Shown here piece after piece: positions 1,528 through 24,558 of a stretch of DNA of 64,000 bases (its first letter is position 1; each line of letters starts with the position of its first letter). The position numbers and the translations under genes were made by a program. Below the pieces are notes generated by a model, which had not been told where the DNA came from, did not search any database, and was given only the letters and a program-made list of their open reading frames with translations. The stretch comes from Tricharina praecox. Its lineage: Eukaryota. The stretch spans positions 2,480,001-2,544,000 of the forward strand of contig NW_026250403.1 of NCBI RefSeq assembly GCF_024521635.1, given 5' to 3'.

Positions 1528-4500
1528 TCACCGATGCTTGTACTTGTCCTCGCGAGCGCGCCTCCTCTCGGGCTCCATCGCATTGCCGACTCCCATCAAC
1601 GTGCGCCCAACAGCCTCACTGACGCCAATGACAGGCCTGATGACCGCCCTGGGAGCGGCTCTTGCGACCGCGGCTGCAACACCTCTCGCATCCCCCCCCT
1701 CCGCCATCTCGGCTGGCAATGTGAGGATCGCGTCTCTAGCCTCTCCGAAGTTACGTCTCAGGGACCTCGAGGCACCGCGCAATCCTAGTACAAAACGTGA
1801 GTAAATCCCCAAGTAATAGATGGGGATGGATGGACAAACCTTGCATCACACTCTCAGGCTGGTCAGCATACAGCGAGACGATACGTTCGCTGTCGGGCTC
1901 GTAGTCGTCATCCCCAACCTCAACCACAGCGTAGTTTTCGCTGCCACCAGAGAGCGCGCCTTCCGCGCTTTGCAACAACGCCTGGGTTCCAACTGCTACC
2001 TTGGCCCCTAGTCGGACTAATTCCCCAGCGGTGTTTCGAACAAAACCTCCAACACCCTTCTGCAACGAGCGAACAATACGACCGTCTTTTCTGTATTCCC
2101 GGACAGGCACAACAACCAGGTCTCTTGCGCCCTTGCCCAGGTTTACGAGAGAGCGAACGGGCGCCACCCCGGCAAGGACACCACCGAGTTGAGTAGTCTG
2201 GATATCGGGCATCCAGGTGTCGTTGAGGACTTTGCTCATTCTCGTGAACCCAGAAATTCCGTGCAGGATAACTCGGCGGAGCACCATATCGGCCTCCTCC
2301 AGGATAAAGAAATTCATGAACTCCGTCGTATGACCCGAGCGGAGGCCACCGTAATCGACATACTTAGGTTTGTAGTCCAATTTGACGCGGACAGCATTGA
2401 TTTCGACCCGCTGTAGGAAGGGCTCTTCCAGTGCCTTTCCTGGGGGTGCAGCACTGGCGGAATCGTCCTTAAATTCGAAGAAGCGAGTGAGGAAGTCGAG
2501 GGTGTCTTGGTCGACGTGGAGACGGAGTGGAAGTATGTTGGCCTTGAGAATCAGTTCGGTAGCCGCCAGGCCTGGTACTGGCTTGACGACCATGCACTCA
2601 AGACGAACCATATCGCTGTTGATTTCGCGGTCCCCACATTCCTGGCAGTAGGTGACAAACTTCCTCCAAGTGCTGGTGGGAACATTATCAAAGATCTCCA
2701 GATCCCGGATCCTAGCATCAACACTCAATTGAACCTCATCGGATGTTGGCGGGAAGAGCAAGAAATCTACATTGACGCCCTTGAGTTCGAATTGCATCTT
2801 ATGGTGTCTGCTCCGGCTGAGTTTGAGTCCGCTGCGATTCTTCCCTGACCGTGAATGGTGAAAGTCTCCGGTTACGGTCGACCGCGAACGCGCAGATAAC
2901 GGTCTACCCTCTGCGGTAGTAGTAGCGTATGATGTTTCAGACATCTGATCGTCAAAATGCCTGTTGATATCATTCGTAAGGTCTCCGGGGGCGCGGTTAG
3001 CCGGAATGCCGATGTAGATCGAATTGAACAAGAAATCATCGACAACACTCTCATCATCCTCCTCCATGTCGAATGATACTCGTCGGTTTCGTCTCTCGGC
3101 GACTTTGGATTCGACTTTTCGAACAGCCTGGGATATGGTGTCCCGCGTTCTCTGCCAGTCGTAACCATCATGGAGATTGAAGATGACATGGACGTCTCGT
3201 ACTCGGACGCGCAGAGGGAAAAACTCAGCCCTACAGCAAGTCAGTATGAGAAATGAAAAGAGCCCGAAGGAAGGGGAAAAAAGCAAAACCATACTTCTCA
3301 ACCGCAGTCTGGTTAAGGGACCGCTTTCCTCTCCGCCTCAGGGTGGTCCTTCCGAAATGATCCTCCACGATCACAATCGAGTCTAGCACCTTGACATCTT
3401 CCTTGAAGATACTATCATTCCCACTTCCCTCTCTGCTGAGATTCGGGATTCGCATCGCTAGAAGATCCTCCTCGAGCATACTGTCCGCGAGCGCCTCCGA
3501 TGGTTGCACCGGCGGGGTTTTGTGACCATAATAGCTCTCGACGAATGACAGATTGGTTGGAAGGTCTTCATCATAATGAACCAGATCCTCCTCATCGGTG
3601 TCCATGGATCCTGGCATCTTGCGCGATGGGTGCACGAACTTATCCTCCGTCAGACTGGCCAGCATATTCTCGATTGGCATAACCTCTGTACAGTATCGAA
3701 TCTCGTCGCTCTCGACAGCTGGAGGTTTGAGACCATTGAAGATAGCTAGCATGGTCTGGGTAGAGTCTGCACAGCTCTCGATGAGCAGGAGATCATCCCT
3801 GATTTCCAAGTCGACTACGTTGCCAACCACTTGCAGGGTCACCATCGCCGAAGAAATCGTAACCATTGGAACATAGCCCATCGAGACGAAGCCCGCGAGG
3901 TGTTCCGACAGCACCTCTCGTCTGCCTCGCATTTGTCCAGGTTCGGCGGCAAGAAGGCGGTCAACATCGTCAATGACCATGATGCCTGCCTTCTTGATTT
4001 CCATCCCCGCACTGACTGCTCCACCGGTCGGGAGGGCGGCCTGAAGTCGACATTCGGTAAGTATTATGAGACCACGGGATTTAAGATCCAAGGGGTTTAG
4101 CGAAAGAACGGAGTCCGTGATAACAACATCGAAGCCCAGACCACCAGCATCATCGGCTTTGCCTTTCTTCGCAGGTAGCGTGATAATGGAGTCGGCGACG
4201 TCCTGGGCAAGTTGTTCACCTGTGGTTCCGTCTGGAGATTCCATTATAGCCATCAGAGTCTGGACATTGTATTCGGCTCGGATATTCCAGAGTTTGACCC
4301 TCACAACCGGCTCTGGCTCATCACCGACCATCCGAACCATGATCATGGGCCGCTCGTGTTGCGAGCCAACAAAGATACGTCGATCTATACCTTCACCCAA
4401 GAGTTCTTCGTGATCGTTCCGCCTCACGCTGATATTGCCGATGGCCATTGCAACCAAAGACGGTGCCGAGATGTGAGTAATCCCCACCGAATCCATCTCA

Positions 4501-7500
4501 GCCTCCAATCGGCCAATGCCGCCGCCAATCTTCGCAAAAGCGTAGACAGCCTCGACATTGATAATCGTGAGAAGTCCAGGGCGTTCATCGCCGGCAACGA
4601 AGTCGGTGACCGAGAGAACCTGGATGACCTCATCTCCCAGGGCCTTGAATGCATCAAAAACGTCCATATCCAGTAGCTCCCCACGTACACCCGCGACATT
4701 TATCCTCGACACACTGCCTTGCTCTCTCTGCCGTAAAAGAGTGTCAATGAGAATGTCATCATCGTCGAATCGGTCTTTGCTTGGGGTCAAAAGCTCCAGT
4801 AGTCGACCCAAATCCTCTTGAGTCGGTCGACTAGCGAACTCCATGGTAGTACCCTCAATCACCAAGCTCACATCCTTTTTGTCAGGAACTGGTCCGGAGA
4901 TGTTGATCTTATCGACGCTCACTGAAACTCCTTTACCAGATTGGAAATCAACTTTGATCGGCGATGTTTCGAGGACGACCTTTGCACTTGTACCAACAAC
5001 GTCGAAGAACAGACCGCCGATGTCGCAGTGAACTTTGATATCAACAGCCGGAGTCTCGGCCTCGTTTTCCGGCCATGGCGGTGGTCTCCCAGCTTTTCCG
5101 ATTGTCGCGGTACTCGCAGTCGTACTAGCTAAAACACTCCCCACACCACCGAACGCGCTAAACGTCTCCTCGAGCCTCTTCAGATCTCCCCGTATCCTCA
5201 ACGGCAAAGTTTTGACATTCACCCGCATCTTCTTTGCGTTTTGTGAGAAGACTACAGTAATATCGTCTTCGTCTCCTGAACCGTTCCCGTGAAGTCGCCC
5301 AGCAGTAGTGCTTGCACTAAAGCGTTTTCTGTGATGCGAAGTTGACATCTTAGCGGACGATACCGGGGGCGGCGCAGAACGCAGAAAAGTGATAATACCC
5401 TCCTCTTCGTCCTTCAGGGCAAATTTCTTGATCGACAACTTGTTGGTAGATGCTTCGTCGTCGAGGCCCCTTCGGAATAGATTGATATCGTTCAGAAGAC
5501 ACTGCAGCTGGATGGTCGGATCTCCCACATCTTCCTCGTGGCTGTCCGTATAGAAACCGCCGAGGTGTTTGATCATCCGGACATCGACCTCTTTTGCAAC
5601 GAGCTGCACCGTCTGCTTAGGTCCTGGCTCGGGCTTTGCCTTGGGTTTCTTCTTGGGGGCCTCCGTGTCCTGTTCAGCGATGATATCCTGAACCACCTCT
5701 AAGAGATGAGCAAGCATCTTCTCAGTGTGGATATCAACGGTGCCATGGATGTTCGACGCGATTATCTCAATATCGGCAGCGCCCGTAGTCACGAAATCGC
5801 CGACAAGATTCCCGTAGGGAGCAACCACCGGTCTTGCATCCACGGAATCCACAATCTTGACCCGGGGCGGCGAACGATATGGAACAGGCGAGGACGATTT
5901 GGGCGGCGGCGGGGTCCGAGGGGCATATCTAGACGCGTACGACGAGAATGCACCTGGCATATCCTGCTGCTGGAATCCACTGACACTTGCGTGCATCTCC
6001 TCACTTCTATCGCGGGCAGGTGTCTCGTCTCGGGGAACAATTGTCACACCAGCCGACAACGAAGGATAGAATATCGTAACAAGATCGACGTCGATACACT
6101 TTTTGCGGATCCTCCTGACGTTGTCCCGAGCTTTAGGCATATCTGGACAACCACCTTCCGTGTGTGGAGGGAGCGAGGAATTTCTGGAAAAGTCAGACTC
6201 GCCATTGATGAGTCTGTCCAGACGCTGGTCCATCTCATCTGCGTCAATATCTTCTATAATGTCGTCTCGACCATCAAGCGTCGAGTGCACCCGTAGCTGC
6301 GACTGCGACCGTAGCATTCCGCTCGTGGCAGACATGTACAAACTATCGGCTTCCTCGCGGGAGAATATAGTAGACTGGCTGAGCATTCTACTGGCTTCCT
6401 GGTCCATCTCATCCTCGCTGCTCTCTATATCGCTCAGGGCTTGTGGCGGCGGTGATGGCGACGGGGACAGCGATGGATCGGCTGCCCGGATCGGTGGTTG
6501 AGGGATAGGTTGCACAAAAGGCTCGGTTTTTGGAGGGCTAGAGGAAGGCGAGGAGAATGCTGACGATCCCGCCGATATAACGGATGCCGAAGGTGAAAGT
6601 CGGAGCTGTTGAGGCATCGAAGAGGCAAACACGGCCCCCCCAACCTCGTCATCGCTATCATCATCCGCGGCATAATTGTCGAAGTAGTTTTCACGAAGGA
6701 TGTTGTTCGGCTTGTTCGACAACGTAGGCCGTGTAGAGGCTCTCATTGACGGCCTCACAAAGGCAAGCACTTCCTCATCGGAGTCTTCGAAATCGTCGAA
6801 TCTATCATCTTGGGAACTATAACTCCTCTGGAGGTCGACGCCGTCCTCATCCCCGACATCGGATGGAGACGTTCCAGTTGGCTGTGGTGAACCGACGGGT
6901 GCCACAGTGGAGGGCTGGCGTGGTACGGGCGATGCATCTCGGATTATGCTCCTAGCCATCTCCTCGTCGTCTGTCGTCTGCTTTGCATCTGCGACACCCC
7001 CTTTCTCCGTCATAGCTTCTGAGGCATCCCCGAATACAGCACTCTCCTCCGGGCTCGTCCCGAACATGGTCTCGGTAGCAGTGATGAATCCTCGAATGTT
7101 CTCCAGCGTGATGCGACGCTTCCCTTCTTTCCGCGGCTTTTCTTGTGGTATTCTCGTCGAATCTGACGGGCTGACATTCCGCGAGACGCCCTCGATGTCT
7201 ACGTCCTCCACCTCGAGTTCCAGGAACACCTTCTCGCCACCCTTCTCCTCCGGTAGTGTCGCTTCCAGCGACGCACTAACACCCCGCACTCTCACAATCA
7301 TCCTATCGGCAATGCCCTTGAACATGCTCGCCAGCATTTTGGGCAAGCCGGGCGAGGTTCCAACTCCCAGCTCCTCATCCTCGTCCTCCTCCGACGTAGT
7401 AATAGATGACATAATGCTCGCGTCCATCGGCGCCTCCGCATAGAGCGACATGAGCTGTTGCTGCTCCGCTCGCGTTTGAGACTGTAGGAACGACTGTGCA

Positions 7501-8012
7501 AGATCTTCGGCCGACACAGGAAACTCCTCCGGACTAAGCTCTGAAGCTCTGTCGCCGGGACGCGGGGTTGACGGTGGCGAGGTGCTCGACGCCTCCGAAA
7601 CATCGTCCGGTGGCGGCGGGGTCACTTTGACGGCTATCTTGACATCGCTTATAAGGATCTCGACGGCGCCCGACAAAAACGAGTTGAACGATAAGCTGAT
7701 CGAAAGCGTTCCGATCACGGCTTCCAAGAGCTCGAACCGGTGGGGGATCTTGATTAGAGTTCGTAGCCTCTACCAGAGCACGATACCACACACGATTAGA
7801 GACAGATTCCACGAAATTTCCCTTAGTGTTCTGTGCCTCACCTCCACCTTGATACCGACATCCCGCACCGTGAAGACCGAATCCCTGCCAAAAGAGCCAC
7901 CAATATTCTCGAGATCACCGAGCGTCCGTTCCTCCACCAGGTCCAAGCGATGTATGATATATCGAACGAGTCGCTTCTCCCACTGCTGTGGGAGTCTGGG
8001 GAACGAAAACAT
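1528..8012 (-). CDS. ATG2: Autophagy-related lipid-transfer protein Atg2 (about 2097 aa, 4 exons)
   Basis: Exons 8012-7842, 7769-3295, 3230-1840 and 1784-1528 join in frame (6294 nt) via GT-AG introns. Chorein-like N-terminus ([14 protein letters not shown]); Atg2 motifs [68 protein letters not shown]-type tail ([25 protein letters not shown]...EDKYK). Confidence 0.96.
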
Positions 8013-10747: not shown

Positions 10748-10904
10748 CACTCCACTCCACTCCTCAAACACCCCACCTCCTAAAAACTTCACACCTTCGT
10801 TCCCGCTGGACCCGTTACGACACCCCTTCCTCTCTAACCGTGATCCCCACTATCGCGACTCGCAGAACCGAAGTACCTAATTGCTACGACTCTAACGACA
10901 CGCA

Positions 10905-13873
10905 ATGGATTCAAGAATACCCCCCAAGTTTCAATTCCCAGAATCGAAACCGAAACCTACACCGTACTCTCCGCCGACAACGAGCGTATCCAGCAACGGC
11001 CTCTTCTCAGCTCAGTCGACCCCCGCAGGCGATCGCTTCCCGGACTCACCGACAAACCTCTCACTATTTGCCGGCGCAACTCCTGCAGCCGGTAAATCAC
11101 TATCTTCGAAGCTCGGAGCTGCTCGTGCAGCTAGCGGCGGCAGCGGCGGCGGTCTATTCTCGCAAACCGGAGGAAAGCCACTCTTCAGCTTGAGCCCCAG
11201 CAATGGCGACTCCAGCCAGCAACCTTTGTTCCCTCAAAACCCCTTCGGTCAATCGCCGATACGTCCTGGAGCTGCCTTGGGCAGGTATTCGAGTCCTGTT
11301 GCGGTAGACGATAGCGATGATCTGGGATACACAAACAGAAGCTCGCCAAGGGTCTTGGAGGATGACTCGCGAGAAGATGCGAGATCGCAGGAGGTTGAGG
11401 ATGACGACACTGGGGAATTTGGTGATGAGGAGGATTTCGAGGAGGACGACGATACGATGCAGGATGAGTCGGAAAGCGAGAGGATATTCGGTTACAACCA
11501 AGAGATCGGCTTGCCCGCAAAGGAGCCAGGCACTCTGATCCTCCGCACAGACGACTTTATGAGCGAATTGTCGGACGCGCTTCTTCCGCGATCGTACGAA
11601 AACGACGGCTATTACGATGAAGATGATATGGATATGAACACGGACCGACGGGAGCTTACGTTAGAAGTGCAACAAGACCAGCTTAACAGGGCTTCGAAAG
11701 CATTCTTGGGTGCCCTCCAGGAGCATTTGCCGAAATCCAGGAGGACCAAAGCAGACAGCAATCTACACAATGCATACTACCTCGCCTCTTTGGCCTTGCC
11801 GCTGAACAACTCGACTGCAACTGTGACCGAGGTGCTGCGCAAGTGGCTGTTTGCCCACCACGCAAACCCCACCCGTGCACAGTTGGCCGCCGTTCGGGGA
11901 ACATATCCCAACAGCGCGTTTGCCGTTGACTTCTGGGACATCGTATTCCGACTGGTGCTCCGTGGAGAGGTATTAGAAGCCATCGAAATCCTCCGCAGCG
12001 CCAACTGGGACCTGCGCTGTGAGGACTCTCCTACAGTGAGCAAGCCTGCCTTCGGCTCTCAGCAGATCAATGACAAGCGCTACACGCGTGCAGAGATCGA
12101 CAGCGTCGAAGATGCTGTTGCGACACTCATTACACTTCTTCTCAAGTGCCCTGCCAAGGGTAGGTCGCCATATCAACCACCGCTGAGTTTCTTCCCTCAC
12201 ATCGACCCAATCGTGGACTCCCCCGGAAGTCCCGCCGATTGGCGGATTTGGAGAGGCGAAGTTTTGAAGGCTTCGGAGGAGTTGAGGGGAATCTCTCAGG
12301 GAGACGAGTCTATCGACGATGACACAGAAGATAGCTACTACGGCTCCTTTAACCCTATGAGTCGCAGCGGCAGCTTCGGATTTGGCAACACCAAAACAAC
12401 AAAGGTCAAAGTCCCACCCGAGTTCAACCGGCAGATTCGCAAGATTTATGATGTGATGCATGGAGATAGAGATGCTATCCTCGTCGAAGCCGAAAACTGG
12501 CAAGAGTTGGTTGTTGGGCTCATGGCGTGGGCCAAAGACACATCGTCCGCCGCAGCCGATGAGGAGGAAGAGTTTGAAGACAGCATCAACGTCACGCAAA
12601 TGGGTCCAGGCGAATATTATTCAGTCTTGCTCACCCGCAGGCGGCGACAGTTGGCCCAGCTCACTGAGGTCCTTGAAATTGTTGCGGAAGAGATGCCGAT
12701 GAACCCCACGGACACCCTCGAGATTGCTGCTGGCGGAATCATGGCCAACGATCCTTCTTTTGTCCTTGAGATCGAGAAGAATTCACAGCTCGTGGCTGCC
12801 ACCGTGGTGGAGATCGGTGGATGGGCGGGATGGCTCACGCGTGAGACTACACCGAAGGACCCTTCGAGAGGTAGAGACATGGGGCTCGATGATGATGACC
12901 TTGCGCTGCTAGAAATGGGAATCGACAATGATGATATCCAGGCTAAGGAGGCAGAGGACACACTCCGTCGGTATGCTTCCAGCCTGTTCGGAACTCCATG
13001 GATCAATGAAGATGCAGAGATCGAAGGATGGGAGATCGGCTCTCGGCTATTGGACCGGGTTAGGAATGGTAGACAACTCACCGAAAAGGTATGTTCTTTT
13101 CCGTCTACTTAATGAACACATACTGACACGCGAAACAGTTGCTCGCTGACCTTCCACTGCCATCTACCCCCCGTGTCGAAAAGCTTCTCAGATACACACG
13201 AGATGCACGTCTCGATGAGGCAGCATCCACCATCTCCTACAAATGGGCGCAGCACCTGCAAGCGACGTCGCAGAGCTATGGCGACATCTTGCACTTCCTT
13301 TCGCTTGCGGCGCCGTTCAATCACAATGCACGGGCCAGCTTGCACGAAACCACCACACACCTCCTGGAGCAATCGCTGCTCTCCTCGTGTCCCTACCCGG
13401 CGGAGGAAGACCTTGACCCTCGGTTGAAGCACCTGCTCTCCTCGCCGTCCGAATGCGAGTCTGAGATCCTCCGCTTCGAGCTCTCCGGCTATGCCGCGCT
13501 CCGGGCGTTTTACGATCTCCGGAAATCGGCCCCCGAGGCAGCGGTCAAAGCGCTGACCGCCGTCATTCGCGCTGCGGGGGAACCGATCGACGGAGGCTCG
13601 TGGGATAGGGACTGGGAGAGCCCGGTTGAGCCCACGGTGTTGCCGGCTGTCCTCAGGGAGCTCCTGGGCTGCGCTGATGCGCTCGGCACTGCAGATGCGC
13701 TCGACGTATGCAAGGTGCTCACCGATTGGGAGACTTGCGGCGAGAACCTTAGAAAGGTTTCCGTTGAAGTCGGTCCCGAGGGCAGCTGGATCGACCTGGG
13801 CAGGGAGGGTGATGTGGTGAAGAGAGTCAGGGAGAAACTCTGTAAGGTGCTTGCAAGGGGATGGGTTAACTAG
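10905..13873 (+). CDS. NUP85: Nucleoporin Nup85 (Y-complex; about 972 aa, 2 exons)
   Basis: Exons 10905-13088 and 13139-13873; intron gtatgt...ctgac...cag. Motifs FWDIVFRLVLRGEVLEAIEIL, WRIWRG, NWQELVVGLMAW, GWEIG and LSGYAALRAFY resemble filamentous-fungal Nup85. Confidence 0.82.
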
Positions 13874-14360
13874 GGCCCTCCCTTGTGATGCCTGCGGAGT
13901 TTCTCCCTGAGTAAATCTCGGCGGGTTGGCTGGTGTAGTGTATTTTTTGCGGGGGGAAGGGGTGTATATGGGAGGCAGGGGGAATATGGGCTTTCTTTCA
14001 CTTCTTCTTTCTTTTTTTAATGCAGTAGATGCAAAAAGATTTTTTGTTACCAAAGGATATTTCATATGCGAAACGAGTGCATTACAGACTGATTTTGTTT
14101 GGTTTGATCATTGATTGCATACGATCTATCTAGATCATGGCAATATCCGCCCATACACACTCCGTACACTGCACACTGCTTTGAACAAGCCAATCGGAGA
14201 TACAATTAGACGAGTGACACATGATGAACAAATGGCATCTGCTCGCCCGCCCGCAATAGCGGAATCGTCTGAAATAAACAAAAACTTTTTTTTACCTAAG
14301 AAAAGCAATCCCAACGCCTATATGCTCCTGGGCACACATGATTTAAAGAACCACCGCTAA

Positions 14361-16013
14361 CTATTTCGCCTTCCCCTTGGCTGAAGAAATTAGACGTTTC
14401 TTGAGATGTTTTGGCATTTTCGTCTTCCGCTGTTCCCGCTTGTCTTCCTTGACTTTCATCTTGTGTTCCTGTTCGAAATATTAACATTAGTTTATACTGA
14501 GGGGTGAGGGGAAGTTGCCGACCTTCTTCTCGTTCTTGTCTTCGTGTTTCTTCCCCTTCGGTGTCTTTTCAAATCTCTTTTCTCTTTGCTCCTCGGTCTC
14601 CTCTGAATCATCCTCCTCGTCATCGTCGGAGTCATCGGTAAGCTCCACTTCTTCCTCGTCGCTACCCTCCTTCTCGGCCTTAGGGGCAAGGAGCTGGTTG
14701 TACACCAGCCCTTGGCCTTCGCCGCGCCCAACCATCTCCGCATCGCGCTCGTAATCGTAAACATCCTCGAGCGTCCGGGGGATGAAACTCTGTCTGAACA
14801 CCTCCTCTTCCTCCTCGGACTCTCCGCCTCTCGTCAGGGTTCTCAGGATCTCCAATATCGCCTCGGGGTCCTTCTGGATACTCTCTTCGATCGGGGTCTC
14901 GGTGATGAACTCGAACAGCTTCCGCATTCCTACGGGTTCCACGCCGCTGCGTCGGAAGAAATCGGTAACGTTCTTGATATCCATGCGCAGGAATTCGAAG
15001 GTTCGCGGATGGTTGAGCTCGACGGATTGCGAAACGTCGATGACCCACAGGTGGTTGCGGTGGTAGAGCACATTGTATTCGCTCAGATCGGCGTGCACGA
15101 GCTTGCACACTTGGTACATGCGCCACATGATGCTGAGCATCTCGAGGTAGCAGCGGTCCCACTCCTCTTCACCCTGGATACCGGCGTCGCGCAGGCGTGG
15201 GGCGGGCCAGCCCTTCTTGTCGCCCAGGAATTCCATCACGAGCACGTGGAGTCGCAGGTGGAGCGGCTCCGGGCACGGGAGACCCGCCATGTGCAGACGC
15301 TTCAAGTTCCGGAGCTCCTTCTCTGCCCAAAGCTTCACCATCGAGCGGTGGTTGCTCTTCGAGTATCCGTGGCGGAAACGGTGCTCGCCGGTAACATAGC
15401 GATCTCTGTCCTTGAAGACCAAAATCGCCGTCTTGTACACCTTGATCGCAATATGCCGCTCCGCTTCCGCAAGCGCATGGTACACATTCGCCTCCTTTCC
15501 AGTCGAGATAACACCATTGATGGTGGAGATATGCCCACGGTTGATCAACTGCAGCAGAATCATCCTCGTGCGCGGATCCAGCACCTGTTCGCTCGTCGCG
15601 CGATCGCTCTTATCCTTCCCACCGCCGCCTCCGCCACCGCCCGCCGCAGGACCCATATCATCCAGCCGGATGCGCCCCGCAAACTTCGACAACTGCGTCA
15701 TCTGGTCGGTCTGGCGCGCCTTCTTCTGCACGGCCGAGTTGACGCCCTTGTTGATTCCCGCGGCCGCCTCGCGCTGCCGGTTGTACCGCTTCGTGAGGTC
15801 GCCGCCTCCGCCGCCCCCGCTGACCGGCGCGTCCTCTGCGTCCGCGAATGCATCCGCGTCGTCGTCCTCCGAGAAAATGTCGTCAACGTATTCGTCGTCG
15901 TCGGCGAATTCGAGTGCGGGATCCCGGTGCTCCCCTGGCACGGTGGCGTCGACGTAGCCCTTGGTACTGTCGAAAGTGTAGGCCGGCTCAGCTGGGGCGA
16001 TTGCGGACGCCAT
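14361..16013 (-). CDS. RIO1: Atypical kinase Rio1, 40S ribosome maturation (about 532 aa, 2 exons)
   Basis: Exons 16013-14523 and 14468-14361. DKSDRATSEQVLDPRTRMIL, ISTGKEANVYHA, AIKVYKT, WAEKE, LVHADLSEYN, IDVSQSVE, FLRMDIKNV; basic tail (KMPKHLKKRL). Confidence 0.97.
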
Positions 16014-16418
16014 TCTGGTTGTGCTTGTGCTTGTCAGTGGGTTTCCTAGAGTTGTGGGGTTCTCTCTGGTTGATCGTGCGAGTAGTTGTGGTTGTGGCAG
16101 TGGTGGGGCAGGCAAGGACTGTTTAAAAGGATTGTGTCATAGTGGGGCAATTTGGGTTTGATGGTGGGGGGAACTAAAAATCGGGAATAGCCGATGAATA
16201 ATCTATCGTAGGGATGTCTCAGATGGACTCATACTCTATCATAGCTAGGGATGTCTCTGGTATGCGTCACAGCTGGGAACTCGGGCTCAGAGGTTGAAGA
16301 ATCGATCAACATTACAATTTCTTATGAGTGATAATAAAACTATAGTACACCGCCTTAGAAAATCCAAACTACTCATCTACAACCGCTTCTGTCCAAGCCT
16401 CCGATTTCCACAGGATTT

Positions 16419-18483
16419 CTAATGTTTCCTGATTTTCAACGCAATCCACGCCAGCAGCCTGAGGCCCACAATGATAGCCAGCAAGATACCAATCCACATA
16501 CCCTCCTCCCTCTTGCCATACCCCATCGCCTTCAGGACACTCTGTCCAGCAATCTTCCCCTCTCCCTGCAGGGGCGAGGCATACATGCACTGCCAGCCCT
16601 CACCACTCTCTGCACGGTCACACTGGTACTCGCGCCCATCGAACTCGTTGAACATCATTGCCTGGAAGACGTAGCGCTGGTAGTTGATCCAGTAGAAGGT
16701 GTAGTACCAAAAGTCGTTCAGCACGTTCTGGGGCACCAGGAAGCCGCCCACACTCATCCACAGGCCGTTGATAAAGGCGGTGACAGCGAGGGCGATGACG
16801 AATACCGGGATGACGGAGGAGACAAGGACTACCAGCGACTCGGCGGCGAGGAGATCGAGGAACAGCCACATAACGTACTTGAAGAAGCTCGTTGCGTCGG
16901 TGCGGAAATTGACGAGGAAGACGGTGATGATCGAGAACAGCAGGGTGTTCAGGAAGATGAATGGAATGCCGATCAGGAAGTTGGACAGCAGGAATGACGT
17001 TGGGCCGTAAAGCCCGTTGTTCCGCTCCTTGACGAACGAAGAGTAGTCCTCAATGAAGGCGGGGATGTACGCTACCGCCATGAACGACATGAATGCGCCG
17101 GAGAAGAAGATGGCATTGGTAAATACTTGGATGTTGCGTTGCTCGGAGTCGAGACGCAGCCAGACGGTGCCCATCATCAGCGCGAGACCGAGGTACATCG
17201 CCACTCTGATCCAATAGGCGAGGATGTCGCGGTAGGACTTGATCCATTGCCGGTGCAGGAGAACGAATGTCTTATGGAAGGAGCTACGGTGCGATACGCC
17301 GGACTGAGCGAGCATATCGTTAGTGCCCTTGCGAAATTCCTTCGGTTTGTTGGTATCATTCCAGGCGTCGATGAGACGGTTGAGACGGTCCACGTCGCCC
17401 GCTTCGGCGTCGAAATCGACATTGCAGACATCGAGGTAGTACTCGGCAGGGTTCGTCAGGTTGGGCACCGGGAAGCCTTGTCCGGCGAAATAGGGTACGG
17501 CTTCGTCCGTCTTGCCGGAGTAAACGACTCTTCCCCTGGATAGTAGGACCAGCTGCGAGAATAGGGCGAATGTAGCGGTCGACGGTTGGTGGATGGATAC
17601 TATGACGATCATGTTCTCAGCTTCTGCAACCTTTTTTATGCGAGACATGACTTCGAACGATGCGGTGGAATCCAATCCACTGGTCTAATGATCCTGTTAG
17701 AGACTGATGGGGGTGACAGACAAGCATAGGTAGGAACATACCGGTTCGTCCAGGAACAGGATCTTCGGCCTGGTAATCAACTGGCTAGCAACACTGACTC
17801 GCCGCTTCTGTCCACCGGAAATCCCCTTCTTGACCGGTGTTCCAATCATTGCATCTTGCTGCATCTCCAATCCGAACGCCTTGATCAAAGCAGTGACCCT
17901 CTCCTTCCGCCCGGCCCCGGTCGGCGCAAGTCTCGCGGCAAACTCGATAGTCTCGCGGACGGTCAACGAGCCTAATCACTGCAAATCAGAACCACGTCCC
18001 CCCGTCCAAACGCTCTCCCTCGGAATGGAGCCATACCGATCAATGCATCCTCCTGCTCCACGTACGTGCTGATACTCCTCAGGGTATCCGAGCCGATTTC
18101 ATTCCCATCGATCAACAACTCCCCCTCGACCGAAGCCGACGCCGCGGCCGGTCTCCTCGCCAGGACGTTAAGCAGTGTTGTTTTCCCGGAGCCACTGGGG
18201 CCCATCAATGCGACCATCTCGCCTACAATATCCACCGCATTAGCATGTCGATACGGCGCATCTGTGCGAGATCTGTGCGGGATCTGTCTCGTCCCGTCCG
18301 ATGTTACATACCTGGTCGAGCACCGCCGGTAATACCGTCGAGGATCTTGAACGGCTGTTTCGTTTTCGTGTCTTTGACGGTCACATTGACGTCCCGCCAT
18401 TCGAACAGTTTGAGGAGCGCCCGAGCGTCGCCGTTGGCCTCGAGGTCGATCATGTTGAGGGCTGTGTCCGACATCGTTGACAT
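16419..18483 (-). CDS. ABCG (White-like) half-size ABC transporter, NBD-TMD order (about 617 aa, 4 exons)
   Basis: Exons 18483-18312, 18222-18037, 17971-17742 and 17684-16419 (1854 nt). Walker A GPSGSGKT, Q-loop YVEQED, signature ISGGQKRR, Walker B/D-loop LFLDEPTSGLD, H-loop SIHQP, then an ABC2-type membrane domain. Confidence 0.96.
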
Positions 18484-20461
18484 GGGGAACGTGGGGAACG
18501 AGGTGATAATGGTATCGGCTTTCTGGATGGATGGATAAACGCTATCGACCTCACCGAACAGGAATACGGAGGATACTTATAAGTCATAACCACTACCAGA
18601 GCGGGATGCAAAGTGCTGGTTATTCTTCCCGATCGTTTGTCGGGACGTGGACGGTGGGACCGCTGTGTTGCCGTCATCCAAATACTCCGAGCTGAAGTGC
18701 ACAGCGCAATATCGCCGAGTTAAGCATGCGCAGGCTATGTACATATGTGCATACATTAAGCATACATACATCCATATCTCGGCTTATAATTTCGCTCAGG
18801 CATCCTCACTTTCTCACTTTCCTGCACGCTTCCATGCGCGCCCGCCGCCTCCGGCGAATTAGCCACCACGAGCAATGCAGCCCAGCAAGGCTGCAGATAT
18901 GTAGATGAGCCGGCGGATTAAATATAGCCACTCGGAGGCTTATCCTTCATGTACTCTACATACATGTGGTGATGTATGTATGGTACCGCTGACTGTTCGC
19001 CTAATAAAAAAAATCCTCCGCGAGAAAAACGCTGCTGACACCGAGAATCCCCCATGAGGCCGGCTGCTGGGCTGGTAATATCCTGCCATTGGTTTAGTGA
19101 TCAGTTCTCGGCTCTGATTCCTGTTCTCCCGCTACACACCTACATAGGTACCTACAGGCTACCCGCTGGTCCGGCCACCAGAGAAAAATCCCCCGATATA
19201 CATAGTACTCTAGATACCTCCCCGAAGGTAGACGACCGAAAACAGAGCTACGATAAGCCCGAGTCGCGCCGGTGATCTGTTGCCGGTTCCGGTTCCGGTG
19301 CCGTCAGCCAGCCAACCAGTCATGCTGCTGATTAGTTATCCAGCTGTGGCAACCCGCATGTGATTACTATTCTGGGTTTATTGTTCACAGGCGATCACTC
19401 GTACAGGATAGGCCGTCCCACGGGCCACAGCTTACGGGGGATTTTTTTGGGAAAATGGAACGAGTGACCGGGATGAGGCTTTCCGGTACCTAATCCGCTC
19501 CGTTCCTTCTTGGGAAAGTCACGAGTGGCGGGCCCGGTGTCCGTGTCGGTGCAGGTGCCAGACTGAACGGCCCGGACGGACGACTGCCATATCTCCCTCC
19601 TCCCCCGCCCGTGGCCACTACATAACTCGAACCCGTCTTTCCACGAGCGGATGAATTTCCGTCAACTCGCCAACCCGCCCGGCACCCGCGGTGTCGAGGA
19701 TAATCCCGCCAAATCACAGTATATCACCCGCCCGCCCCGCGCGCCCCACGGCGGATCACTCCCCTTTCATCCCTCCCTTCCCCGCTCCCCTCCTTGCTCT
19801 CCTCCCACTCCCCCTTCCTCCCACTCCTACTACCACTCCTCCCACTCCTTACTACCAAGCCATCAACACCATCCATAACCCACAAATTTACGTACACACG
19901 TACAGATCGGGGAATATACGGTACTCTGTACTACCTCGCTACTCCACACGTAGGTCATCCGACCGGTGCGGCAACGGGGGAATGATCACTTTTTTCGTTC
20001 ACTTCAGGGCTGGCTCAGGGCTGGCTCAGTGGAGCTTTGCCGTGCCACCACCGTCGCACACGCAGAGCAGAGCAGGGGGAGGGGGGAGAGGGGGGGAGAA
20101 AGCTCGGCGCGAGCAAAAAAGGAAGTATCGAGAAGAGCAGGCTGAACGGTGCGCTGTGTGCGTATGTATGTATATGGCAAGAGCAGGTAAGACAGGCGCC
20201 GTACCCCTCGGGACGTTGGCCGGTCACAGCTCGTTGCACCGGTAGGGTAGGGATACGAGCGGGGGATACGAGCGGGGTCGGGGGGAGTACACATTCAATA
20301 TCAGGATGTCAGGAAGCCAGGACTCCGGGGAGCGGGGTTATTTATCCCCCCCACATCCTCCGCACATCCCCCGCACACCTCCCCTACCCCAGCACCTCCA
20401 CCACCACCACCAGACCCCACACCCCACCACCCACCACACACCGCCCCCGCCCCCGCCGCAA

Positions 20462-20890
20462 ATGGAAGCCCTCCTAATCAGCAACATAAAGCCGCTCTCC
20501 CCCTCACTCGCAGAATACCACACGTGGACCGCACGTGTAAAAGACCTGCTCTGCTACCTGGAGCTATGGCCGATCCCGCCCTCGCCCGTGCGCTCCGGCC
20601 ACGGCCCGCACCGGTGGCCGGCAAACGTTGAGGTCCCCGCGCCCGCTGCTGTTTCAAGGGATCACGGGCTGCCAACATACTCGGCTGTGGCGGAGGCGGG
20701 GCAGGTGGGAGGTGCGGGAGGGGTTAAGGAGCAGGCGGAGAGGGCCGAGAGGAGACGCCTCAAGACCGTCGCGGTTATTAGAGCATGTCTGTCGGATTCG
20801 CTATTTTTGAGCTATGCGGTCAAGGAGTTTGATGATCCGGCAGCGCTGTGGGGGCAGTTGAAGATTACGGCGGCGGCGAGGGGGTGTTAG
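20462..20890 (+). CDS. Stand-alone Ty1/Copia Gag-like protein (N-terminal capsid region only; 142 aa, intronless)
   Basis: IKPLSPSLAEYHTWTARVKDLLCYLELW fits the Copia Gag start pattern (I..L....NY..W...mk.lL....LW); TVAVIRACLSDSLF...DDPAALWGQLK fits the following A...I...lsd......a..lW..L pattern. Start context caaATGG. No pol, LTR or PBS seen nearby. Confidence 0.65.
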   Translation: MEALLISNIKPLSPSLAEYHTWTARVKDLLCYLELWPIPPSPVRSGHGPHRWPANVEVPAPAAVSRDHGLPTYSAVAEAGQVGGAGGVKEQAERAERRRLKTVAVIRACLSDSLFLSYAVKEFDDPAALWGQLKITAAARGC

Positions 20891-22065
20891 GTGCACTGGA
20901 CGGGCTATGTGGGTGTGGGCTGTGGGTGTGGGCGGGCGGGTGGAGATGGGATTGGTGTTATACCTGGGAGGGAAGAAGTGGGCGTTCCTGGCGAATACAT
21001 ACTGGATTCTGATCTGGGTTTCACCTTTGACCTTTCACCTTGCACTGGGCACTGAGCAGAGTCGTTCATTGGAGGAGGAGGAGCAGAGTGTTTGCCATCC
21101 ATCTCCGTCCCATCCCATCCCATCCCAATACATTCACACATCCAAGTGACCGCCCGCCTGCTTCGAAAAGATCCCCATTCACAGGTCAAGTCTGGTAGGT
21201 AATAGGTAATATACTGTACAATCCCACAAACTTACCCCAACAAATCTGCATCGTAATGAGTAGGTAAGTTTTAAGTGCGGCGGGTAAGAAGTAATGGACA
21301 AGAAGTGTGGACAAGAAGTGCAAGCAAGTAAGTGGTTGAAGAAGAACATCGATACCGTACCCGGGCAGCCCCAGCCCCATCTCCAGAGCTTGAGGGCCAA
21401 AACAGAAAGAAAAGGAACCCCGAAGGGAATAAAGGTTATGAGATGGTCGTCGTAAGGAATACATAATACTTAGTAAGAAAGTAGAAAAATTATAAAGGAA
21501 AAGAAGGTAGAGAAGAAGAAAGAAGAAGGAAAAAAAGGTAGAAGATAGAAGATAGTAGAAGAAGAAAAAAAGTAGGGTCATAGGCCGCCGAGCAAGGTGA
21601 ACAAAAATCACAAAAAAAAACTCCAAAGGCACACCCGGCGCCAAAAAACCATCAGCCAAAAAGGACTGGACAAACATTGCGCACAACCAACCGACCCAAC
21701 CCAATCCAAACCCAACCCAGCCTGGCCAAAATTCCACAAAGAGAGCAATAGAGTCCAAGCAGAAACACCAGTTTCCCTAACAAGCCGAACGAAATGAAAG
21801 CAAAGACAATCATCAAAACAAAAAGCGAGGAAAAGCAGACAAGCCACACCACGCCGTTCCGGTAAGAAGTAGCAGAAAGAAGAAGAAAAGGAAGAAGAAG
21901 ACGAAGAAGAAGAGGAGGAGGAAGAATAAGAGGAAGAAAATGAGGAAACCAGAATCCCAGATCTAGAAATACAAGCACCGCCTACTGCAGATCAAAAACA
22001 GGTTAACGGCAAAACCCTGCAGACAAATGTTTACTCTACGCCTACGCCCAGGGGTTTCTTGCTCT

Positions 22066-24558
22066 CTATGCCTTGGAATCTCCCTTGGCATCCTCGCAGA
22101 TGATGGTCTTCATCAAACCCGCCAACTTCGGCCACCCCTCCTCCATTCTCCCCAGCGCATCCAGCAGGATTTCCACCTGGTTCCGCACGGTTCCGTTCCC
22201 GTTCCCGCCTTCACCTCCCTGGGACACGAATCGGTAACACAGTATGCGTGCTGCCATGAACAACGTAGGTGCCAAAAGCGGGTTCCCAAGGACCCTATCG
22301 TCATCGGGATCCAGCGTGCTCGACACATTACGGATCAGCGTGAGAATGTTTTCCACCGCGTTGACGCTGCGCTGCTCGCCGTCTTGTTCGTCCCGTCCGT
22401 GTAGGAATATGGTACACGCGTGAGTGGTGCAGCCCAGTAGTAAGACGGTGGGCATCTCCTTGGGAGATACACCGATCATGGAGCGGTATGGTTTCGGTAT
22501 GTTCAAAAGGAAGCGCGTCAAGGCGAGATCAAGGGCCATGGACTCGGTCGAGGAGCGCTGCGGGCGCGGATGGTGGAGGATGCGGCCGAGGAGGACAGCG
22601 AGCTTGCAGAGATGCTGGTAAGCATCGCGCTGTGGACTCTGACTGTTACCCATCATCGTTGAGGGAACGAGCCCGTCCAAGCTGTTGGGAAAGGGATCGA
22701 TGACCATGTGTTCGACACTCTACAATACGAGTCAGCATCGGAGGGGCGGGCCAAAAGCTGTGATCGGAATATAAATACCTCCAGTGATCCACTCTGAAAG
22801 ACGTCTTCCGATACTGGAAAGTTCACGTTGAACTGCGAATCATCGATACACACGGGCCAGGGCACGGAGGTGGTCGAGAGGCGGTCCAAAATGAAAATCG
22901 CCCACACAGTCCTCCTGCGCTCTTCGATCTCCAGTTCGTTACGCGGGTCCGGAAGGAATCCTCGGAATGCCGAGTTGGAGTCGATCCTGTCGAGACCGAG
23001 CGGCGAACACATGCGCCATACCGAGCCGAGGAATATCCACATCTGCGACATCTGCGACAGCCCGAACATCCGCAGACACAGGTAGATCCCGCCCTGTACT
23101 GCATGCATCGTGAACTGGCCCTCACTAACTGCGCGATCAAAACACGCCTTGCCGAGCGTAGCCCAGTAAGAAGAAGCCGCTTTCACTCCGGCGTCAGGGT
23201 GAAGGTAGCCCGAGAGGGCGAGAATCGCAAAAGTCAGCGTGTTCGGCCGGGTTAGGGGTCCTTTAGACGCGATATCCTCCATGACGCGCTTCTTGTACAG
23301 AAACGGGAGAATCGTATGCCATTTCTCAAAGAAAAGGTTGAATAGTACTTTCATCAACTCCGGCGAAGGGAGCCCATCATCTGACAGCTCTGGCATCTCA
23401 TCCGTGACCGCGTCGTCGCCAGCCAGCAAATGAGAGGTATCGATCTGCGCGAGGCCAACGAACGGCGACGCCTGCAGGAACTGCGTCGCAAACTGCGTCG
23501 CATCGCATTCCACGTGCGTTGTATGGCTCGGGGGATTAATCGCGCGCGCGCTGACATCGGGCGACGAGTCGAGGGATGAGAAGGAGCGTTTGCGCGGGTT
23601 GAAAGTCGTACTCCCGTTAGTGAGGTTCGGCGAGAGTCGCGACGACGCGAAAGTTGGCGATACGCGTGCGCCCGTAGCATCCGCGTTGACAGGTGTGAAG
23701 CCACCTCCTCCGCCGGTACCGGAAGTCGAGCTGGGCGTCGGGCGATGGACCGTGGGGACCGTGAGGCTAGGCGTCATGGAAGTCCCGCGCATCGCAATCG
23801 GCGGATCATGCGCGGCGGGCGTCTTGGAGCCTCGGGTGGTCGAAAGCGACGATTGCTCAGCTGGGGCGCGATCAGCGGGTTGGTCCGACGATCAATAGTG
23901 GGGGAGGGGGGGCATTCAACTCACCTCGATAATGGGCACTCGAATGAATTTTAGTGACCGCATTATTCGTATAAACACAAGGCCGATCGAGTCGCTCGCA
24001 AGCTCCACAGCTTGGCTTACATCCCTATGTCGTGAGAGTTGGAATTAGCGACGATTCGGAGGTAGTGATAACGTGATGTTTTATTTTTATTTTGAGTTTT
24101 TTTTTTTAATCGCGGACGCGTTGCGACAGCGGGGGAGGGGGACGTACGTCGCACTTGCGCTTTCGTTGGCGACAACCCAGACACGCCTGGTTCCTTTCCA
24201 GCACCTTCTTTGTCGGCGGTGTATCCCGAGTGTTATTCTGGTGCGCGAGTGACGGCGGGGCAGGTGTGGTGCTCATCGCGACGGCATTGGTCGAGGCCGA
24301 GGGAGCTGCGTTAGTTGCGGGAGGGGAGGTGGGAACGGACATCGAGCGGGAACCAACAGCGGGGGGCGACAGCGCTCGGTGGGCCGAGTGAGTCGGAGAT
24401 GTGGGCGAGTTGGAGGGCGACAGCATCTCGTGAGCGAGCACCAGCGACGGACTCGAAGGCGCGGCGGCAGTCAGAGGAGTAGACGCCGGCGACGGTGACC
24501 GGATCGAGGGAGGGCGGGCGGACGGAGGAGGAGGAGGAGGCGGAGGGGTGGCGGCCAT
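22066..24558 (-). CDS. Zn(II)2Cys6 transcription factor with fungal-specific TF domain (about 748 aa, 4 exons)
   Basis: Exons 24558-24148, 24024-23925, 23860-22779 and 22719-22066 (2247 nt). The zinc cluster ACLGCRQRKRKCD|GCKPSCGACERLDRPCVY is split by intron 1; middle-homology motifs LFFEKWHTILPFL, LGLDRID, EERRRTVWAIFILDR. Confidence 0.94.

Follow-up and report, generated by a model that had tools for sequence, protein, structure and literature searches.

A 142-residue open reading frame of Tricharina praecox as a probable host-retained fragment of Copia Gag

The locus and its open reading frame

The stretch of Tricharina praecox DNA considered here (64,000 nucleotides of contig NW_026250403.1, assembly GCF_024521635.1, positions 2,480,001 to 2,544,000 of the forward strand; hereafter the window) carries at 20462-20890 a short open reading frame (ORF) surrounded by ordinary genes of the fungus. 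In an earlier note, made from the letters alone, this frame was described as an orphan relative of Copia Gag devoid of retrotransposon context and proposed as a domesticated capsid-domain gene acting as a restriction factor or adaptor. Here, we addressed the origin of its product (P0001), its retention by the host and the role it may have. Profile scores, structure comparison, chromosomal position and selection point to a gene probably derived from the N-terminal domain (NTD) of a Copia capsid (CA) and kept by the host, for which an action against resident Copia elements is conceivable.

The frame runs without interruption from ATG to TAG over 142 codons, and its translation presents, in order, MEALL...YHTW..RVKDLLCYLELW, a stretch rich in Pro, Gly and Ala with LPTY inside, and VIRACLSDS...FDDPAALWGQLK, the stop being placed nine codons past this last block. 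Both motifs, the insert between them and the end shortly after the second are thus confirmed by the sequence as they had been described, and so are the GC-richness of the frame (GC 0.63; 0.71 at third codon positions, GC3, in neighbouring genes 0.59-0.76), its CA-rich leader and the lack of decay by repeat-induced point mutation (RIP): GC3 is host-like, and RIP indices of 0.85 and 1.13 are not RIP-like.

Initiation at the ATG of 20462 (context caaATGG) appears likely. The same frame stays open upstream as far as an ATG at 20306, where the deposited 194-aa protein P0002 begins; because homologous frames of relatives have no in-frame ATG upstream of MEALL, and because an 819-nt contig of public run X2, otherwise identical across 20102-20910, lacks 23 nt at 20401 and thereby puts ATG 20306 out of frame, this upstream start was set aside, and the start of P0002 is probably mis-annotated. 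All seven members of the protein family described below begin at the Met of MEALL or five residues later. A longer spliced gene reaching beyond 20890 was dropped: the seven tails differ and all end within about 17 residues of LWxQ[LI], and neither Pfam searches of the local frames nor tblastn with Copia ORF pieces gave a frame resembling a Gag C-terminal domain (CTD) downstream of this position. An antisense gene was dropped likewise, since the minus-strand frames of 18.3-22.4 kb have no family match in Pfam. Judged from sequence comparison, the frame is more than a chance one, because the family keeps its start and nearly the same end and the ratio of non-synonymous to synonymous substitution rates (dN/dS) is 0.24.

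Members of the family were recovered in three steps. A word-index protein search with the ORF returned two 139-aa proteins at 61% identity and no longer related protein at E ≤0.01. With a three-sequence profile, HMMER run exhaustively on 1.84 billion representatives found only P0003, P0002 and P0005 (112 aa), and a four-sequence profile brought in P0006-P0008. The resulting family counts seven distinct members (112-142 aa) built of two conserved blocks and a variable linker, the latter being about 30 aa longer in the subgroup of the window than in the short members, and identity of P0001 to family members ranges from 37 to 61% (BLASTP). Sphaerosporella brunnea (Pezizales, Pyronemataceae; KAA8910264.1) is the source of P0005, a hypothetical protein, and the other relatives are JGI/IMG proteins. 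In the N-terminal block, Y19, W22, R25, K27, D28-C31 and L33-P37 are invariant throughout the seven-member alignment. Pfam gave no family for P0001 and P0002 at E up to 10; in sequence searches of PDB, the family profile returned two noise rows only at E up to 10, and one natural Gag ORF used as a query returned ribosomal L1 noise only. The features of the gene and of its surroundings are collected in Table 1.

Table 1. Features of the ORF and its neighbourhood in window coordinates.
Feature	Position	Strand	Evidence
Coding sequence of P0001, the Gag-NTD-like protein of 142 aa, with its stop codon	20462..20890	+	ORF; family with common start and end; dN/dS 0.24
N-terminal conserved block, residues 1-37 (…EYxxWxxRVKDLLCYLELWP), DUF4219-like	20462..20572	+	Alignment; DUF4219 matches below cut-off; alignments with Gag ORFs L270, L263 and L260; modelled helix 16-32
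Disordered linker rich in Pro/Gly/Ala (residues 38-96), exceeding that of short members by about 30 aa	20573..20749	+	Alignment; pLDDT <50 at residues 38-87, no secondary structure
LPTY, residues 70-73, invariant [LP]PxY (PY) motif of the family	20669..20680	+	Alignment; shuffles; comparison with Gag ORFs
C-terminal conserved block, residues 97-134 (RRRLKxxAVIRxxLxDxL..Y...FDDPxxLWxQL)	20750..20863	+	Matches the start of Retrotran_gag_2 in real Gag; three modelled helices
In-frame upstream extension of the deposited 194-aa model P0002, probably 5′ leader and not coding	20306..20461	+	Relatives without in-frame ATG; 23-nt deletion
ATG2	1751-7769	-	Pfam
Nup85	10896-13112	+	Pfam
RIO1 kinase	14487-16136	-	Pfam
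ABCG-type transporter, upstream neighbour, host gene, divergent	16419-18541	-	Pfam ABC2_membrane, ABC_tran
Fungal-specific transcription factor, downstream neighbour, host gene, convergent	22066-23891	-	Pfam Fungal_trans; syntenic in L004, dN/dS 0.04-0.10

Sequence similarity to Copia Gag

A set of natural Copia Gag proteins was assembled for comparison. Patterns run on viral contigs gave none: a zinc-knuckle pattern found unrelated loci, including retrovirus-type and Ty3-type gag and no Copia, an RNase H motif pattern found no match, and a reverse transcriptase (RT) motif pattern found two loci, both without Retrotran_gag_2. The RT motif pattern, searched in genome contigs, led to many small contigs of prokaryote assemblies, and a Retrotran_gag_2 search of five such assemblies yielded 22 Gag loci in four of them and 42 ORF pieces of at least 100 aa. 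These loci (L249-L270; assemblies G003, G004, G005 and G007) are an observation in their own right: small contigs filed under Sideroxydans (a metagenome-assembled genome), Labilibacter sediminis CG51, Puteibacter caeruleilacunae JC036 and Streptomyces clavifer JCM 5059, four of the five assemblies probed, encode eukaryotic Copia Gag or Gag-Pol, with 22 Retrotran_gag_2 matches above cut-off, and presumably represent eukaryotic contamination.

The hidden Markov model (HMM) of the family, run against the 42 pieces with all filters off, scored five of them: L270 (23.5 bits, E 8.7e-8), L263 (17.8 bits, E 5e-6), L260 (16.0 bits, E 1.9e-5), L251 (10.6 bits, E 9e-4) and L265 (6.1 bits, E 0.02), the remaining pieces having E >0.1. 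Among about 5,400 controls the maximum was 10.5 bits, reached by one of 1,224 natural ORFs from the window and other loci, while 4,200 shuffled Gag-locus ORFs gave at most 9.0 bits and 42 reversed sequences at most 2.3 bits. The alignments are colinear, HMM positions 7-104 (residues 7-134 of P0001) falling on Gag residues 19-120 in L263, so that both blocks follow the order of Gag with similar spacing, and both motifs quoted in the earlier note find their counterparts, e.g., EEYFSWCLRIKDFI and RTLRIIRSALPNNIY...LWTQL in L270. Four of the scoring ORFs (L263, L270, L260 and L251) carry Retrotran_gag_2 above the Pfam cut-off; the C-terminal block of the family, aligned with L270 residues 108-156 and L251 residues 7-37, corresponds to approximate positions 22-75 of this 172-position model, and the family as a whole spans only about positions 1-75. 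The reciprocal comparison by phmmer of five Gag N-termini with the seven members and the 1,224 natural controls placed the family on top in all five cases (with L270, P0004 at 1.1e-5 and P0001 at 1.8e-3), and hhalign of the family with an alignment of 19 Gag ORFs returned a probability of 87.6% and E 3.5e-6 over 85 columns (query 16-105).

The search of curated models that the earlier note had suggested (DUF4219, Retrotran_gag_2 and UBN2) bore out its proposal in part. DUF4219 (PF13961) is the sole Pfam match of P0006, P0007 and P0008, three of the four short members (E 0.11, 0.032 and 0.12; 12.6-14.4 bits), and residues 18-38 occupy profile positions 5-25, i.e., the predicted N-terminal place, but no Gag family was reached at its cut-off. 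The C-terminal block alone, taken from all seven members, retrieved only noise from Pfam (TraK_C, Roughex and Myo1_CA).

Structural similarity to the Copia capsid

The AlphaFold 2 (AF2) model of P0001 contains helices 3-9, 16-32, 88-109, 112-121 and 126-140 and a disordered segment 33-87, with mean predicted local distance difference test score (pLDDT) of 54. Compared with PDB, it gave a best Foldseek E of 6.3 and a best VIA-align Z of 4.1, the rows being unrelated. For the short homologue P0005, the model was made from no sequences other than the seven of the family, hence without any Gag, and in the VIA-align comparison with 48,161 representative PDB chains, ranks 1 and 2 were both taken by the Drosophila Copia capsid: 8vvw_A (Z 8.7, rmsd 2.9 Å, 83 aligned residues, 18% identity, model residues 14-112 on chain residues 11-95) and 8s41_A (Z 7.3, chain residues 12-96). 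The next rows are the Ty3 capsid NTD (5.8), Arc (5.8), PNMA2 (5.4), the RSV capsid and dArc1, and the best clearly unrelated row has Z 5.6. The expected likeness to a Gag CA-NTD is thus found with the model of P0005, but the model of P0001 remains unmatched. In the Atlas comparison, the top feature match of P0005 is a DUF4219 cluster (0.91), all 10 family-bearing matches belong to the gag clan, and TM-by-query values of 0.68-0.77 over 88-100 of 112 residues connect it with nine clusters, six of them with Retrotran_gag_2; the same comparison is weaker for P0002 (0.83-0.85; TM 0.33-0.44). According to the available text of PMC11835246, Copia Gag is divided into NTD (residues 1-90), CTD (91-186) and nucleocapsid (NC, 186-270). 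The family is the Copia capsid NTD and little else, its exact boundary being inferred from the Drosophila numbering.

Several results speak against this derivation, and together they make up the case for an orphan gene restricted to this lineage, in which the likeness of short amphipathic helices to the Gag N-terminus would be superficial. Threshold is reached by none of the curated Gag models: the DUF4219 cut-off of 27 bits is attained by none of the seven members, four of which (P0001, P0003, P0004 and P0005) have no Gag match in Pfam, and Retrotran_gag_2, Retrotran_gag_3 and UBN2 match none of the seven at E up to 10, whether whole proteins or the C-terminal block are searched. The profile search of 1.84 billion proteins returned the family alone and no Gag, a result explained by the fact that 16-23 bits are non-significant in a search of this size. 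The five Gag ORFs that scored are all from a single assembly (G004), L263 and L260 being near-copies, and eight Gag ORFs of the other three assemblies together with six more of G004 gave no score. Confidence is low for the two AF2 models (mean pLDDT 54), Foldseek of the P0005 model against PDB found no match (best E 3.1), and Z 8.7 lies where helical models can match through common arrangement. Such an orphan would leave without explanation the HMM scores above those of some 5,400 controls, the reciprocal phmmer result and the hhalign E of 3.5e-6, the colinearity and similar spacing of both blocks, the first two ranks of the Copia capsid among 48,161 chains obtained from a Gag-free model and the agreement of Atlas with them. 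Since sequence and structure lines converge on one family named beforehand, we consider the orphan gene highly improbable and the origin of the ORF from the Gag NTD very probable, as the earlier note had proposed.

Genomic setting

No trace of a retroelement accompanies the ORF. There are no direct repeats of at least 80 nt across the 64-kb window and no retroelement Pfam families in its 19 large frames or in the 51 stop-to-stop frames of at least 50 aa between 18.3 and 22.4 kb, and tblastn of the 42 natural Copia ORF pieces against the window gave nothing, the best E of 0.047 being not near the ORF. In the frames and repeats so scanned, the parts of a complete Ty1/Copia element—CA-CTD, zinc knuckle, protease, integrase, RT/RNase H and long terminal repeats (LTRs)—were not found, and the absence of retrotransposon context claimed before is upheld by these scans for LTR-like repeats, pol families and Copia matches.

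Some other observations concern the surroundings. The ABCG transporter gene is absent from the syntenic interval of the metagenome loci L001-L003 (L001 8152-9956), where only a 16-residue remnant is left and the distance from RIO1 to the ORF is about 1.8 kb as compared to about 4.4 kb in the window; it thus represents a presence/absence difference among close relatives. A 332-codon open frame opposite the 3′ part of the Nup85 region (13109-14107, minus strand) has no Pfam family and shows dN/dS of 1.1 versus L001 and is therefore in all likelihood no gene; it served as the wrong-frame control mentioned below. The interval from the ORF to the transcription factor gene contains a purine-rich non-coding block (window 21373-21525, L003 10865-11017, L004 1020-1083) that retains 71-79% identity in both relatives and may be a 3′ untranslated or terminator region common to the convergent genes. 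The transcription unit is flanked by low-complexity runs, G-rich and GT-rich, at 20060-20101 and 20905-20945, and since contigs of public runs break at these runs, contig data are of limited use for transcript ends.

Retention by the host

In metagenome loci L001-L003, which represent one sequence type and encode P0004, the gene lies on the downstream side of Nup85 and RIO1, the same as in the window, and in locus L004 a homologous stretch lies upstream of the same transcription factor gene. The site is therefore shared, on one side by Nup85 and RIO1 and on the other by the transcription factor, and syntenic orthologues, by which the earlier note proposed to check its reading, do exist. For the window versus L001 (one intact pair), dN is 0.30-0.34, dS 1.2-1.3 and dN/dS 0.24-0.27, with a bootstrap 95% interval of 0.11-0.37 and none of 300 replicates at or above 1; the wrong-frame control, a non-coding antisense frame, gave 1.1, and RIO1 and Nup85 have dN/dS 0.12 with dN 0.09. 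Thus purifying selection, likewise named for verification, is indicated by the ratio and by its upper bound. No second copy of the gene occurs in the window or loci L001-L004, and no second family protein at >61% identity is present in the protein collection, which bears on copy number indirectly; within the window and these loci, the gene is single-copy.

Three findings speak against a functional gene. Its dN is 3-4 times that of the neighbours (0.30-0.34 versus 0.09), so that, with dN/dS of 0.24, it is to be regarded as constrained but fast-evolving. The orthologue in L004 (225-640) is a pseudogene without ATG, with TAA at the codon of Y19 and deletions of 2, 11 and 1 nt, although the protein of the flanking transcription factor is 90-96% identical there; dN/dS for the window versus this copy is 0.41, and since the copy is dead, at least one lineage can do without the gene. 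Further, no RNA record was found among the listed sequence holders of the ORF. Contigs of runs X1 and X2 (run type guessed) cover parts of the stretch and two soil metatranscriptomes do not cover it, and all these records bear neither way on transcription.

The thoroughly disabled copy, the rapid protein evolution and the lack of a proven transcript, as well as the shortness of the ORF and the lack of a Pfam match for P0001, would suit a mere relic, namely a functionless fragment of an old Copia insertion still open by chance and slowly decaying. Members at 37-61% identity nevertheless keep start, frame and nearly the same stop despite dS >1, dN/dS of 0.24 with upper bound 0.37 stands against 1.1 for the nearby non-coding frame, GC3 is host-like, and all other traces of the element are gone, which implies great age. 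We therefore regard a decaying relic as improbable. Among a group of Pezizales, the gene has been passed on vertically at a single chromosomal position and is held by purifying selection, and we predict with good confidence that it is a functional host gene. Host retention, as originally suggested, thus agrees with the absence of element context, the syntenic site and the selection observed: neither a failure of every Gag comparison, nor, in the window and loci L001-L004, multiple or element-linked copies, nor a lack of synteny, nor neutral evolution was encountered.

The PY motif

In a linker that varies elsewhere, P71 and Y73 are the same in each of the seven members. The three proteins with a long linker have LPTY, and the four with a short one have PPAY. 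Composition-matched shuffles of the linkers carry [LP]PxY in only 0.8-3.4% of trials per linker. It sits in a segment modelled as disordered (linker pLDDT <50). None of the 19 Gag ORFs has [LP]PxY at the matching place, and two of the 19 have LPTY inside the helix corresponding to the C-terminal block. Being invariant in the family and absent at that place in sampled Gag, the motif looks acquired after co-option. (L/P)PxY motifs are described to bind WW domains of Nedd4-family ligases, of which Rsp5 is the fungal one (PMC2171029, in its available text), and by analogy the motif of the family probably binds the WW domains of Rsp5.

Possible mode of action

The favoured account, to which we give as a whole a probability of about one half, is that of a co-opted gene encoding only the Copia CA-NTD and serving as an assembly decoy with recruitment of a ligase. 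It very probably stems from the 5′ end of a Ty1/Copia gag and keeps the first helix, resembling DUF4219, a disordered loop and the opening helices of the Retrotran_gag_2 region; CA-CTD, zinc knuckle, pol and LTRs have been lost. Since NTDs form the centre of each capsomer, pentamer or hexamer, in Copia capsids (PMC11835246, available text), a free NTD could enter Gag capsomers of resident Copia elements; devoid of the CTD contacts linking capsomers, it would poison particle assembly, in analogy to the block imposed by the CTD fragments Ty1 p22/p18 and DRT2. The PY motif of the loop may in turn bind Rsp5 and couple the protein, or its partner, to ubiquitination. This mechanism, proposed by analogy, is tentative, and the known restriction factors derived from Ty1-family Gag speak against it, since they employ the CTD and not the NTD.

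A function for the host itself, apart from transposons, has roughly the same likelihood as this mechanism. In its definite form, a functional, Gag-NTD-derived small PY protein would act as an adaptor or regulated substrate of Rsp5/Nedd4 in some host pathway (trafficking or turnover), the old capsid fold being used, as in Arc or PNMA, just for binding proteins. Such a role would be in keeping with the invariance of the PY motif and its absence at that place in sampled Gag, with the location among host genes next to the ABCG transporter and with the fact that, in the available text of Wang and Han 2021 (PMC8321522), most co-opted gag genes are without demonstrated anti-transposon role. The transporter, however, is missing from the interval in L001-L003 although the gene is intact there, which means that no functional tie joins the two; the protein has no known partner, the sequence shows neither membrane anchor nor another targeting feature, and the gene is lost in one relative (L004). 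We hold the adaptor form to be possible but doubtful. Returning to the action on Copia elements, a bolder variant—unlikely at present—would be a restriction factor of Pyronemataceae whose NTD senses assembling Copia Gag rings and whose PY motif, added after domestication, recruits Rsp5 for their destruction; if true, it would be a minimal fungal counterpart of the capsid-sensing Fv1 or TRIM5 and the first Gag decoy based on the NTD and not on the CTD.

Comparison with known systems

Wang and Han 2021 (PMC8321522) report, in the text available, 14 deep gag co-options, three of them fungal: Crtg12 and Crtg13 derived from Copia in Dothideomycetes and Crtg14 derived from Bel-Pao in Tremellomycetes. 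The screen behind this list was run with the gag-clan models of Pfam (E ≤0.1), DUF4219 being excluded, and considered events above the family level, and the family of P0001 would escape it, because only DUF4219 reaches E 0.1, this model was excluded and a range above family level was required. Of the features by which these authors recognise co-opted gag, shared synteny and selection (one intact pair) are both found here. Like Crtg12 and Crtg13, the gene of P0001 is a fungal host gene from Copia gag, single-copy, syntenic among species and under selection; unlike them, it belongs to Pezizales/Pyronemataceae, and the difference in lineage makes it probably an independent event. It keeps the NTD only. 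The literature search, covering papers apart from their supplements, found no co-opted gag in Pezizomycetes and none consisting of the capsid NTD alone. The gene is a new fungal case of co-opted Copia gag, unusual in its NTD-only make-up and conserved PY motif.

The closest functional parallels are truncated Gag proteins of yeast. Ty1 p22/p18 blocks assembly (PMC8458377), and DRT2 of Saccharomyces cerevisiae is a domesticated truncated Gag which restricts in the same manner (Hannon-Hatfield et al. 2024, PMC10951436), both as stated in the available texts. All are truncated Gag of the Ty1/Copia superfamily in fungi with the same proposed action as incomplete capsid subunits, and DRT2 is, in addition, a chromosomal domesticated gene; theirs, however, is the capsid CTD with restriction demonstrated, whereas P0001 is an NTD with a PY motif for which restriction is only proposed, and DRT2 lies in a recognisable Ty1′ relic, whereas the locus of P0001 is without element remnant. 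The structurally best matches, those of the Drosophila Copia capsid (8vvw and 8s41), share the same aligned helices at 17-18% identity over 83 residues, but Drosophila Copia Gag continues into CA-CTD and NC and belongs to an active element, and the loop after helix 1 is longer and disordered in the family of P0001. Fungal PY ligands of Rsp5, such as Sna3 and arrestin-related adaptors (PMC2171029 and PMC9105457, available texts), are similar in being small proteins whose conserved [LP]PxY lies in a disordered segment, but they have no homology with the family, and P0001 lacks both a membrane span and an arrestin fold.

Compared to the animal cases, the gene of P0001 is alike in being a host gene built from a capsid domain and different in source and size. 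The domesticated gag genes Arc, PNMA and RTL/PEG10 as well as Fv1 are host genes built from retroelement capsid domains, but they come from Ty3/Gypsy or endogenous retroviruses, are much larger and generally comprise both capsid lobes. The capsid domains of Arc, PNMA2, PEG10 and MOAP1 rank lower in the VIA-align comparison of the P0005 model. The present case illustrates that such genes can lie below screens based on Pfam thresholds and yet come to light when profiles and folds are compared in a targeted way. For a comparison with loss of function, a close relative offers its naturally occurring pseudogene, and, if the protein binds Copia Gag or Rsp5, it would make a very small and tractable model of a capsid fragment turned into a host tool.

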